A DNA stretch of 64,000 nt from Nitrosopumilus sp. Lineage in GTDB: Archaea > Thermoproteota > Nitrososphaeria > Nitrososphaerales > Nitrosopumilaceae. The stretch spans positions 512,001 to 576,000 of the forward strand of contig OZ244732.1 in the NCBI GenBank assembly GCA_965219345.1, given 5' to 3'. Shown in pieces: positions 5,629-43,384 of the stretch; position 1 is the stretch's first letter; every line of letters begins with the position of its first letter. The notes below the pieces were generated by a model. It was not told where the DNA came from and made no database searches. It saw only the letters and a list, made by a program, of their open reading frames with translations. Made by a program: the position numbers and the translations under genes.

Positions 5629-5702
5629 GCGGAGTTAGTTTAGTCTGGTATAACGTCAGCTTCCCAAGCTGAAGGCCGCGGGTTCAAATCCCGCACTCCG
5701 CA
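5629..5702 (+). tRNA. tRNA-Gly (anticodon CCC), no intron, CCA not encoded
   Basis: Acceptor stem GCGGAGT/ACTCCGC, anticodon arm TCAGC-TTCCCAA-GCTGA, T arm GCGGG-TTCAAAT-CCCGC. Confidence 0.97.
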
Positions 5703-40452: not shown

Positions 40453-40917
40453 ATGTTTGATAAATTTAGAGAAGGAGAGATGGTAGAAGAAAGAATGGTA
40501 GAAAATGAAAATGCTGGAGAATCTGTGGAATCTACTTCAACAGCAGAGTCTGAAATTGGAATTGGAGAATTAATAGGAAAACGTGCAAAATTAGAAGAGG
40601 CAATAGATTACGTTGGCTTGATGATTAAGAATCTTAAAGACAAGAGAACTTTGCTTGAAAAAGATATTGAGGAGGAATCAGTAGATATTAAAAATCTTAA
40701 AGAAAAACTACAGAAAGTTAGTGAATACATTGAAGAGGAAAATAAAGGGATCCAGGAGCTTGCAATTAAGAGAAAGCAGGTAGAGAATGAAGCTGATAAA
40801 GTAGGTACAATCATCAATACATTAAGAGATAGACTATCAGGAATTGATAGAATTATTGATGATGAAGGTAATACAGTTAAGAGAGTAAAAGAATCTAGAG
40901 AATCATTAGAAGATTAA
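40453..40917 (+). CDS. coiled-coil protein
   Basis: Continuous heptad pattern rich in E/K/L/I. Confidence 0.75.
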   Translation: MFDKFREGEMVEERMVENENAGESVESTSTAESEIGIGELIGKRAKLEEAIDYVGLMIKNLKDKRTLLEKDIEEESVDIKNLKEKLQKVSEYIEEENKGIQELAIKRKQVENEADKVGTIINTLRDRLSGIDRIIDDEGNTVKRVKESRESLED

Positions 40918-40928
40918 AATTTTTAGAA

Positions 40929-41570
40929 TTAGAGGAATTTAGCAGTAGACACTTCTTGAGTATTTGTTGGAACTGAAGGGAACATTTGACCTGCAGAACT
41001 TTCTGCAACAGCAGCAGCCTCTTTTAGAATATTCTCTGATTCTACGTTAGTAGATTCATCAACTCCAAATGCTACATCGCCAGAGAAACTCTCTGTCATA
41101 AAGCCTCCAAGCATTTCTGCCATTTGCCCAATTTCTTGTTCAGCCCCAGGCATTATTTTTCCAAGAGATGATTTTAGATTCTTCATCAGACCCACTGTTG
41201 GCATCATTGCTACCACAGTGTCTCCAAGATCACTGCAGGTAGTTAGACGTAATTCAATTTGTTCTAATGCTATTCTAGCACTACTCAAAATTTTTGTAAC
41301 TTTTCTTATCTCTGCTAACTCATTACCAAGAACTTTGGTGGTTTGAGTATCATGTTTTTGTGTTGCCTCTACAATTCTTTGAAATAATTTTGCATCACGT
41401 TCTTGTAAGTTTGTTAACATCGAATCTAATTTGTTAATTTGTAATTGTAATTTTTTAACTGCGTTTGAAATTCTTGGTTTTAGTGGACCTTTAGGTTTGA
41501 TAGAATCATTAATTTTTTCAGTAATACCTGGCTTTGGTTGTTTCGTCCATTTACTAGATAAATTAGGCAT
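40929..41570 (-). CDS. cdvB: ESCRT-III / CdvB paralogue (Snf7 family)
   Basis: Clear paralogue of 23331-23987 (LKPRI, ELAEIRKVTK, LEQIELRLTT..DLGD, FPSVP). Confidence 0.9.
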   Translation of the reverse strand: MPNLSSKWTKQPKPGITEKINDSIKPKGPLKPRISNAVKKLQLQINKLDSMLTNLQERDAKLFQRIVEATQKHDTQTTKVLGNELAEIRKVTKILSSARIALEQIELRLTTCSDLGDTVVAMMPTVGLMKNLKSSLGKIMPGAEQEIGQMAEMLGGFMTESFSGDVAFGVDESTNVESENILKEAAAVAESSAGQMFPSVPTNTQEVSTAKFL

Positions 41571-41695
41571 TGAATACGATTTTAGAAAATGTACTTAATT
41601 TCAGGTGTGAATATTGATTTACATTTGATAAAATTTCACTAACAAAAACTAAACTATAGGAATAGCCTTTATTTGAGGTCTGTAAAGTAGGTTAA

Positions 41696-42127
41696 TTGAA
41701 TAAAAAAATTGTATTAATTCCCATAGTTATGATAGTTGCAATTTTTGTAATTATTTCTTCATCAGACCCATCTGAGAAAAATGGCAATCTTGTATTTCAT
41801 GTAACTCTTGCAGATCCTAGCTTATACACTAATGGAGCCTACACTGATACATTTACTATCAATAATGGCGAGTATTCTTTTAGATTTGTTCCAAATGGAA
41901 GTAGCCCAAAGATCTTATCAATAACATTGAGTGGAGAAAAATTTGACTTTTCTCAAGATTTTAGGCTTGAAAGTACCTCACACCAAACTGGGACCTCTGA
42001 ATATTTTACATGGGAATATGTTGGGCAAAAAATTATTTTGATTTCTGAGATGCAAGAAATTTCTATAATTATCAATCCAAATGGAAATGTAGTGGGTTCG
42101 GTATCTGTGGATATTTTAGAAAATTAA
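41696..42127 (+). CDS. hypothetical membrane-anchored extracellular protein
   Basis: N-terminal hydrophobic anchor, beta-rich domain. Confidence 0.7.
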   Translation: MNKKIVLIPIVMIVAIFVIISSSDPSEKNGNLVFHVTLADPSLYTNGAYTDTFTINNGEYSFRFVPNGSSPKILSITLSGEKFDFSQDFRLESTSHQTGTSEYFTWEYVGQKIILISEMQEISIIINPNGNVVGSVSVDILEN

Positions 42128-42259
42128 ATGGCGTAAACCCCTTTGCTACAGAACTATGAGAGATTTCCTCTCGTTGTCAGCACGTAATAACGTCTGATTG
42201 CCATTTTCGTTCTGCGGGGTTACGCAATCTTAGTCGATAGGATTTATACCCTTCGGCAT
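42126..42259 (-). ncRNA. candidate multi-stem structured RNA
   Basis: Four nested helices plus a 5' hairpin; TTAAATAG TATA-like box at 42288-42281; no long ORF. Confidence 0.62.
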
Positions 42260-42393
42260 TAATTACTATAGTAACTTTAACTATTTAACATTTCATTAAA
42301 TATTTTATAAAATTTATGATATTTTATAAAATATTTTGTGCCTATTTGGAGGCATGATTGATCTATAAATTACGAATTTTTATTTAGAAAATA

Positions 42394-43137
42394 TTGAGAT
42401 TATCTGGAAAAGTTGCATTAGTAACAGGTGGAAGTCGCGGAATAGGATTTTCTATAGCAAAAATTTTGTCAGAAAATGGAGCAACAGTAATGATAACAGC
42501 AAAGAATCAAGATCGATTAAAAAAATCAACATTGAAGATCCCAAATGCAATATGTATTGCAGCTGATATTAGAAATACAAATGAAGTAAAAAATGTTGTA
42601 AATGAAACAGTTGAGAAATTTGGTAAATTAGATATTCTTGTAAATAATGCTGGAATATTTCCAAAGATCAGGCAATTACACGAGATTGATGAAGATGAAT
42701 GGAATGAAGTTTTAGATGTAAATCTTACAGGACAGTTTAGATTTACTAAGGAAGCAATTCCTCATTTGAAAAAAACAGGTGGTTCAATAATTAACATTTC
42801 ATCTGATGCAGGATTAAAGGCATATGAGGGATTTAATACTGATGCATATTCTGCTTCGAAAGCTGCTTTAATTTTACTAACAAAATGTTGGGCACTTGAA
42901 TATGCTAAAGACAGGGTTAGGGTTAACTGTATTTGTCCTGGAGTTGTAGATACAGATATGTCAAAACCGTTTTTGAAAACTCAGAAAGATAGAGAATTCA
43001 TGGATAGTGAACACCCAATAGGCAGAATTGGACAACCTGAAGAAGTGGCAAAAGCAGTAATGTATTTTGTATCAGATGACGCATCTTGGACTACAGGAGC
43101 AGTACTTGCAGTTGATGGAGGGGAATCAGTAAAATGA
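42394..43137 (+). CDS. short-chain dehydrogenase/reductase (FabG-like)
   Basis: TGGSRGIG, NNAG, YSASK, RVNCICPG, VDGG. Confidence 0.93.
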   Translation: MRLSGKVALVTGGSRGIGFSIAKILSENGATVMITAKNQDRLKKSTLKIPNAICIAADIRNTNEVKNVVNETVEKFGKLDILVNNAGIFPKIRQLHEIDEDEWNEVLDVNLTGQFRFTKEAIPHLKKTGGSIINISSDAGLKAYEGFNTDAYSASKAALILLTKCWALEYAKDRVRVNCICPGVVDTDMSKPFLKTQKDREFMDSEHPIGRIGQPEEVAKAVMYFVSDDASWTTGAVLAVDGGESVK

Positions 43138-43147
43138 ATTCACATAA

Positions 43148-43384
43148 ATGGTTTACAATACTGGAGAAAAGAATATGATGAAGGATAGGAAGGCAAAAGC
43201 AAAGTTGATCATACTTTTAGGAAGTATTTGGATTATCATTACATTACCACTGCCATGGTTAGTAAACAACCCACTGGTTTCAGAAACACAGTTTAACACC
43301 ATACTTGCCATCATAGGAGTTATGTCAATTCCATTTATTGTTCTGGGAGTTGTTTGGACATTAAAGCCAGAACTTACAACTTAG
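43148..43384 (+). CDS. small two-TM membrane protein
   Basis: Two hydrophobic helices; probable start at about 43176. Confidence 0.65.
   Translation: MVYNTGEKNMMKDRKAKAKLIILLGSIWIIITLPLPWLVNNPLVSETQFNTILAIIGVMSIPFIVLGVVWTLKPELTT

Follow-up and report, generated by a model that had tools for sequence, protein, structure and literature searches.

tmRNA (SsrA) combines a tRNA-like aminoacylated domain with an internal reading frame that lacks a start codon, and works together with SmpB. In small RNAs of the SgrS/SgrT, RNAIII/hld and SR1/SR1P type, the frame specifies a conserved peptide, about 26 to more than 40 residues long. Nitrosopumilaceae count among the most abundant archaea of the ocean and are drivers of nitrification; to our knowledge, almost nothing is known about RNA-based regulation in this family.

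A primary metatranscriptome of the Red Sea (PMC5069720) yielded new noncoding RNAs for Euryarchaeota and cyanobacteria, and the parts of its text consulted here name none for Thaumarchaeota. Likewise, in the consulted parts of PMC13475601, the SRP and RNase P RNAs of Nitrososphaera are the only RNAs of this sort that are mentioned. A genome paper (PMC3043068) refers to an unnamed conserved noncoding RNA that is also present in N. maritimus and may be the same as the RNA considered here. Full-text literature searches returned no description of this RNA, in agreement with an earlier sequence-only reading of the locus that had regarded it as possibly undescribed, and an annotation in the supplement of PMC3043068 is possible.

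In this study, we focus on a predicted RNA gene of about 140 nt on the minus strand of a 64,000-nucleotide stretch of a Nitrosopumilus genome (hereafter the window, referring to this whole stretch). It belongs to an uncatalogued small-RNA family of unusual design, and we propose that it acts in trans as a stable folded RNA that engages ribosomes, a reading to which comparison of sequences lends slightly better than even probability.

Locus and layout of the RNA gene

The RNA lies in an intergenic spacer flanked by two plus-strand genes, a 143-aa ORF (41696-42127) and one for a short-chain dehydrogenase (42394-43137). Its elements, in window coordinates, are as follows.

42260-42118, minus strand: RNA element
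42288-42282, minus strand: TATA box TTAAATA, with 29 nt from its first T to the A of the ATG downstream
42230-42259, minus strand: mini-ORF, predicted to be leaderless, with ATG, eight further sense codons (MPKGINPID) and TAA
42259-42257, minus strand: start codon ATG of the mini-ORF
42232-42230, minus strand: stop codon TAA of the mini-ORF
42235-42255, minus strand: P0 hairpin, formed by the inside of the mini-ORF, with the start and stop codons unpaired on either side
42226-42229, minus strand: spacer of 4 nt between the stop codon and P1
42216-42225, minus strand: 5′ strand of P1 (10 bp; partner 42141-42131)
42131-42141, minus strand: 3′ strand of P1, with one bulged U
42209-42215, minus strand: 5′ strand of P2, nearly invariant in sequence (7 bp; partner 42154-42148; G-U closing pair)
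42148-42154, minus strand: 3′ strand of P2, followed by a variable 6-nt bulge (42147-42142)
42198-42208, minus strand: J2/3, an A-rich junction of which 42206-42202 can pair with the 3′ tail
42177-42197, minus strand: P3 hairpin (42197-42190 with 42185-42177), variable in sequence and length
42158-42172, minus strand: P4 hairpin (42172-42168 with 42162-42158), 5 bp and a 5-nt loop, almost invariant in sequence
42118-42130, minus strand: 3′ tail, an invariant C followed by a U-rich run, overlapping the stop codon of the convergent ORF
41696-42127, plus strand: convergent neighbour outside the RNA; its 143-aa protein has a hydrophobic stretch at the N-terminus and matches no Pfam family

The TATA box, mini-ORF, 5′ hairpin and P1-P4 that the sequence-only reading had listed are all found on the minus strand where it had placed them, and the convergent next gene of which it spoke is the 143-aa ORF that faces the RNA. 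The U-rich run of the 3′ tail is likely to serve both as an archaeal terminator and as the partner strand of a pseudoknot. We infer from the T-run alone that transcription would end in this tail, and the match of the covariance model introduced below ends at 42118. Contigs from four sequencing runs, two of them of no more than presumed RNA origin, extend over coding and non-coding parts without distinction.

Elsewhere in the window, a 213-aa Snf7-like ORF (40929-41570, minus strand) scores 25 bits, just under the Pfam cut-off of 27.3, and is adjoined by a 154-aa ORF rich in charged residues (40453-40917, plus strand); we presume that the two form a Cdv-type cell-division pair.

Comparison with catalogued RNA classes

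The 4227 models of Rfam 15 were searched both at their gathering thresholds and at E values up to 10. At gathering thresholds, the search of the 64-kb window gives no match on the RNA, and at E up to 10 the region 41900-42500 gives five chance-level matches of 14-19 bits against thresholds of 44-100. The only Rfam match in the window is a tRNA gene at 5629-5702 (plus strand, 74 bits).

The locus had also been described as unlike tRNA, SRP RNA or RNase P RNA, and this description holds: ARAGORN reports no tRNA or tmRNA gene in 41500-43000, and the genome has its RNase P RNA (G000:C1:1819764-1820042, 196 bits) and SRP RNA (G000:C1:479633-479944, 101 bits) elsewhere. Two further candidates were dropped on inspection of the alignment. 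A C/D-box or K-turn pairing of the flanks of the ATG and stop codon fits one paralogue type only, and a tRNA-like acceptor or T arm was likewise abandoned.

Distribution within Nitrosopumilaceae

BLAST searches (E up to 1) against 201 genomes of the same family, a tally that includes the unpublished genomes G077, G092 and G093, gave matches in 190, many of them full-length and including the promoter, with second or third copies in many genomes. A covariance model of 141 positions and 36 pairs was derived from 70 aligned copies and assigns 151 bits to the element in the window. In the genome to which the window belongs, BLAST and the model both find a single copy, the extra BLAST matches being AT-rich promoter-like words. 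The model was then applied to a sample of 151 genomes of the class, including the unpublished G077, where it matched all 80 genomes of Nitrosopumilaceae with 1-4 copies each (79 of 79 without G077) and none of the 70 genomes from 11 other families. The sequences of the unpublished genomes themselves were left out of the analysis. With laxer settings, five genomes from two sister families gave nothing credible, the one match reaching 15 bits at an E value of 4.5. The homologue search that the sequence-only reading had suggested as a check finds the RNA in every sampled genome of the family (80 of 80). For most copies, the GC fraction of the model matches is 0.37-0.57. As a probe, the P4 hairpin was useless: searched as a 15-nt pattern with 2 mismatches allowed, it matched as often as a reversed control in all families.

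Several copies depart from the common form. At one locus (L123, G043:C67:1270-2093), two tandem copies of the RNA lie about 300 nt apart, with mini-ORFs of nine and eight codons. A genome of the same genus carries a second copy (L145, G283:C1:695934-696466) with a GC fraction of 0.24, a four-codon frame and a broken P4, features by which this copy is probably decaying. Furthermore, a subfamily in the genus g11 (L110, L114, L118, L135 and L138; 38-40 bits) keeps the promoter, mini-ORF and P1, with the arms inside P2 replaced by other sequence.

Fold and compensatory changes

The 161-nt stretch of the minus strand folds with -43.2 kcal/mol, compared with -29.4 +/- 4.0 in shuffles (z -3.46), and 1 of 200 shuffles folds as well. 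The plus strand of the same stretch has an equally good fold (z -3.42), so that the fold alone cannot identify the strand.

The structure was examined in an alignment of 90 copies (89 distinct rows) to the covariance model. In this alignment, 85.2% of paired cells hold a pair, compared with 73.1% in column shuffles, and double changes occur in 36 of the 41 pairs. The covariation score is 0.347 versus 0.164 in shuffles and is reached by none of 500 shuffles, and six controls with a slid register score at most 0.102. Because this alignment was fitted to the structure, the count was repeated on a plain MAFFT alignment of 70 copies, where 87.0% versus 81.9% of cells are paired and the covariation score is 0.189 versus 0.114. 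Additionally, RNAalifold recovers P1, P2, part of P3 and P4 without guidance. The P0-P4 fold exceeds chance on homologues, and the helices that had been read from one sequence are supported by compensatory changes in the 90 copies from other genomes.

The helices differ in how they vary. In P0, whose hairpin sequence differs between paralogue types, all six pairs show double changes and 73.9% of cells are paired. P1 has double changes in 8 of its 10 pairs, with 90.7% of cells paired, and P3, in which all eight pairs show double changes, varies freely in sequence and covaries. Each of the seven pairs of P2 shows some double change, and the proportion of paired cells is 96.4% in P2 and 95.6% in P4. 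The sequence of P2 and P4 is almost frozen across copies, with invariant columns beyond what pairing demands; such conservation is the usual sign of a recognised surface.

The three-way junction, the internal bulge that separates P1 from P2 and the tertiary pairing that may form would also suit a self-cleaving ribozyme, whether of a known three-way-junction class (hammerhead, twister-sister) or a new one. However, the sequence of the bulge is not conserved, inspection of the alignment revealed no hammerhead core motifs, and the Rfam ribozyme families (hammerhead, twister, twister-sister, pistol, hatchet) give no match up to an E value of 10; we regard self-cleavage as highly improbable. The bulge was also considered as a loop-E motif and rejected for its lack of conservation.

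Possible pairing between the junction and the 3′ tail

The sequence-only reading had further proposed that the unpaired junction pairs with the 3′ tail, giving a pseudoknot or an alternative fold. The complementarity itself is present (42208-42198 with 42132-42126), although in this one sequence the 7-bp pairing has a p value of about 0.07 by shuffling and is not beyond chance, and in single sequences the pairing is often no better than in shuffles. Among the homologues, one pair is A-U in 31 copies and U-A in 18 (the form found in the window's own copy), with few mixed cases, whereas the helix as a whole is paired in only 61.2% of cells. In copies whose tail starts with C, the pairing is lost (A-C in 12, G-C in none), and the extended 7-bp form competes with P1, of which it would open the last two pairs. 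The proposal thus stands in part: the pairing is likely to be a feature of Nitrosopumilus-like copies, as a true pseudoknot or as an alternative fold. When the first 43 nt were blocked to mimic a ribosome at the stop codon, folding gave no consistent new helix, with a program that cannot draw pseudoknots.

A compact junction with conserved nucleotides, a long-range pairing and universal presence in one metabolic guild are features that a ligand sensor could share, that is, a riboswitch-like aptamer in a stand-alone small RNA whose junction would bind a metabolite or ion and alter the stability or activity of the RNA. Against this, the conserved nucleotides lie mostly in the helices P2 and P4 and not in the junction strands, the RNA is located outside a 5′ UTR and has no co-directional downstream gene, and the riboswitch models of Rfam give no match even at E values up to 10. 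Ligand sensing is therefore an explanation that we find distinctly unlikely, and a stable RNA acting in trans remains the reading that we prefer.

The mini-ORF and its promoter

A TATA box with at most 1 mismatch precedes the RNA in 89 of the 90 copies. The following counts refer to these 89; the remaining copy, left out for want of a recognisable TATA box in place, has an ATG, nine codons and TAA. From the TATA box to the start, the distance is 29 nt in 77 copies, 28 in 9, 30 in 2 and 27 in 1. In the genome of the window, 27 of 49 first ATGs of long ORFs behind a TTAAATA lie 28-31 nt past the first base of the motif, a clustering from which leaderless mRNAs seem to be the rule for such genes, and the 29-nt spacing of the RNA equals that of these leaderless protein genes.

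The frame starts with ATG in 81 copies, GTG in 6 and TTG in 2. It has nine codons in 77 of the 89 copies and eight in 7, with single copies of 7, 10, 4 and 15 codons, and the weakest match (34 bits) has a frame without a stop. All three stop codons are used at the same place (TAA 54, TGA 18, TAG 16), and in 85 of 89 copies 3-5 nt separate the end of the stop codon from P1. The ATG behind a TATA box, which the sequence-only reading had taken as the beginning of a nine-codon ORF (MPKGINPID), is no peculiarity of this locus, and the mini-ORF is among the most conserved features of the RNA. Extension of the frame by read-through of the stop was considered and rejected: the longer frame is open for 27 more codons here and closed early in relatives.

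The encoded peptides differ between paralogue types (MPKDIIPID, MSLVTKSNE, MSITISAD, MSLGILDFK, MIVESLQMA and others), which indicates that the product is not what is conserved. This bears on the idea that the locus is a micropeptide gene, with the 9-residue peptide as its product and the folded core as a stabilising 3′ UTR. Conservation of start, frame and stop would fit such a gene, as would the fairly constant type-A peptide (MPKDIIPID and close variants). The type-A conservation, however, tracks the pairs of the hairpin while loop codons change residue, and between paralogue types the peptides have no sequence in common while a nearly invariant core is retained, leaving this idea very improbable.

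Start, frame and stop are nevertheless kept despite unrelated hairpins and peptides, and the length variants of 8, 7 and 10 codons show that the distance from start to stop shifts by whole codons; this argues for ribosomes reading the frame and for the reading being under selection. We put the probability that the mini-ORF is translated at a little over one half, judging from the pattern of conservation. A fixed 27-nt distance from start to stop could also follow from a hairpin of fixed size, and most of the 77 nine-codon copies share ancestry, which leaves no more than about three or four independent changes of length as tests of the frame. Likewise, the change from A to G at the first base also fits the purine-start rule for transcription, and P0 buries codons 2-9, which is expected to hinder leaderless initiation.

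Strand, gene neighbourhoods and independence of the RNA

In the alignment, which itself leans towards the minus strand, this strand has 208 G-U pairs versus 84 A-C mismatches. The TATA box and the start are kept on the minus strand in every copy type. Close relatives are syntenic on both flanks, so that orthologues alone cannot separate the element from its neighbours, a separation for which the paralogues can be used. Type-A copies face the gene of a 140-180-aa membrane-anchored protein at 21 of 22 loci, type-B copies face a DUF1246/DUF1297 gene, an architecture that we take to be PurP-like, at 10 of 12 loci, and further copy types sit beside yet other genes, with some neighbours co-directional or distant. 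Copies thus occur in unrelated contexts, mostly facing a convergent gene, as expected of a free-standing gene. Since the unit that moves consists of promoter and RNA, it is a gene of its own and not a UTR. The earlier view of a free-standing RNA gene with its own promoter is accordingly supported by promoter, start and fold being conserved together in differently placed paralogues.

These paralogues also bear on a plus-strand origin of the signal, in which the structure would belong to the convergent 143-aa gene as its 3′ UTR or terminator. The equally good plus-strand fold, its position directly after the stop codon of that gene and the synteny of both flanks in close relatives would all be compatible with it. 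Paralogues beside other genes, on the other hand, keep the minus-strand TATA box, start and core, and the excess of G-U pairs over A-C mismatches likewise speaks for the minus strand; a plus-strand element is hardly credible.

At 21 of 22 type-A loci, the homologous convergent ORF ends 116-148 nt past the ATG of the RNA and within about 25 nt of the RNA's 3′ end, in many genera. If transcription of the convergent gene runs past the stop codon, the resulting mRNA would lie antisense to the small RNA along its full length; on the plus strand, the first T-run of four or five lies about 70 nt in, inside the junction of the RNA. In addition, an ORF of 78 aa (43148-43384, plus strand) that has two hydrophobic stretches and matches no Pfam family recurs upstream of the RNA in several genera.

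The arrangement raises the question of whether the RNA could be a translation-gated attenuator of antisense read-through into the convergent gene, in which a ribosome on the mini-ORF would choose between P1 and the pairing of junction and tail, and transcription would accordingly stop at the U-run or read on. A tiny ORF with an unconserved peptide, directly before alternative pairings that involve the terminator run, is what such a device would need, and most copies reach or approach the stop codon of the convergent gene. Several observations point the other way. The convergent partners differ by copy type, with some neighbours co-directional or distant; no sensing codon is enriched in the mini-ORF; the sequence-invariant P2 and P4 are left unexplained; and termination in archaea is not known to require a hairpin. 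We therefore hold attenuation to be unlikely, and return below to an RNA that acts in trans.

Proposed mode of action and significance

The RNA consists of two modules. The first, at what are predicted to be the first bases of the transcript, comprises a start codon at leaderless spacing, eight sense codons within P0 and a stop codon. The second follows 3-5 nt later as a long P1-P2 stack leading into a three-way junction with the variable P3 and the sequence-invariant P4, where the A-rich junction strand may pair with the U-rich 3′ tail. As a stable folded molecule, the RNA would work in trans, the invariant face of P2 and P4 possibly being recognised by a conserved partner, either a protein or the ribosome, while the 5′ hairpin and the pairing of tail and junction could tuck both ends away from exonucleases. 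The mini-ORF would load a ribosome that is forced to halt directly at the base of P1. Translation itself, and not the peptide, may then be what counts, either by shielding the core from ribosomes or by coupling the fold of the core to translational activity.

In a more specific version, the RNA would be a ribosome-engaging regulator of a kind not described in archaea: the leaderless nine-codon frame would bring a ribosome to the foot of a pseudoknotted three-way junction, where P2/P4 contacts the ribosome or a termination or recycling factor and thereby throttles or senses translational capacity in ammonia-oxidising archaea. We offer this version tentatively and consider it rather unlikely; it can be likened to tmRNA and to ribosome-hibernation devices in logic, not in ancestry.

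The RNA is kept in all 80 sampled genomes of the family, often in several copies, has a promoter that matches the one in front of strongly expressed leaderless genes, and includes two helices of frozen sequence; it is therefore likely to have a central role. It is unusual for a leaderless frame with a fixed length of nine codons to stand immediately in front of a rigid fold, a design that gives a testable handle on the interplay of leaderless translation and RNA structure in archaea. Furthermore, the covariance model would allow the RNA to be annotated in several hundred genomes, where its place is now empty intergenic spacer.

Comparison with known systems

HgcC and its relatives, the GC-rich-island small RNAs of Rfam, resemble the RNA in being structured, GC-richer RNA genes in AT-rich archaeal genomes; they differ in phylogenetic range and architecture, and no Rfam family, theirs included, matches the RNA above chance level at E up to 10. 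The THF-I and glutamine riboswitch aptamers also have a three-helix junction locked by a distant pairing. In contrast to these aptamers, the RNA gives no profile match and does not reside in a 5′ UTR, and the partner in its distant pairing is the 3′ tail.

With leader-peptide attenuators of the trpL, pyrL and ermCL type, the RNA shares a tiny ORF, a peptide of no importance in itself, competing pairings and a U-run. Unlike them, it lacks a co-directional downstream gene (the neighbour is convergent here and in most copies) and a run of sensing codons, with no residue enriched across peptide types. Moreover, its start is predicted to be leaderless and not led by a Shine-Dalgarno sequence, and what follows downstream is a three-way junction that is conserved and has invariant arms.

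Dual-function small RNAs (SgrS/SgrT, RNAIII/hld, SR1/SR1P) are closer in being free-standing genes with a short frame. They also have their own promoter and terminator, which for the RNA are predicted in silico from a TATA box at a fixed distance in 89 of 90 copies and a T-rich run after P1. The frame of the RNA differs from theirs in having nine codons and no peptide conservation between paralogues, and no base-pairing seed was identified in the RNA.

The tmRNA (SsrA) of bacteria, finally, is a small stable RNA that joins a frame of about ten codons and a stop codon to a pseudoknotted domain, and one in which translation as such matters and not a folded protein product; the RNA is proposed to share this plan. 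While tmRNA carries a tRNA-like domain, the RNA has neither such a domain, according to ARAGORN, nor an encoded acceptor-type 3′ end, and its frame is situated at the 5′ end and begins with ATG, GTG or TTG in 89 of the 90 copies.
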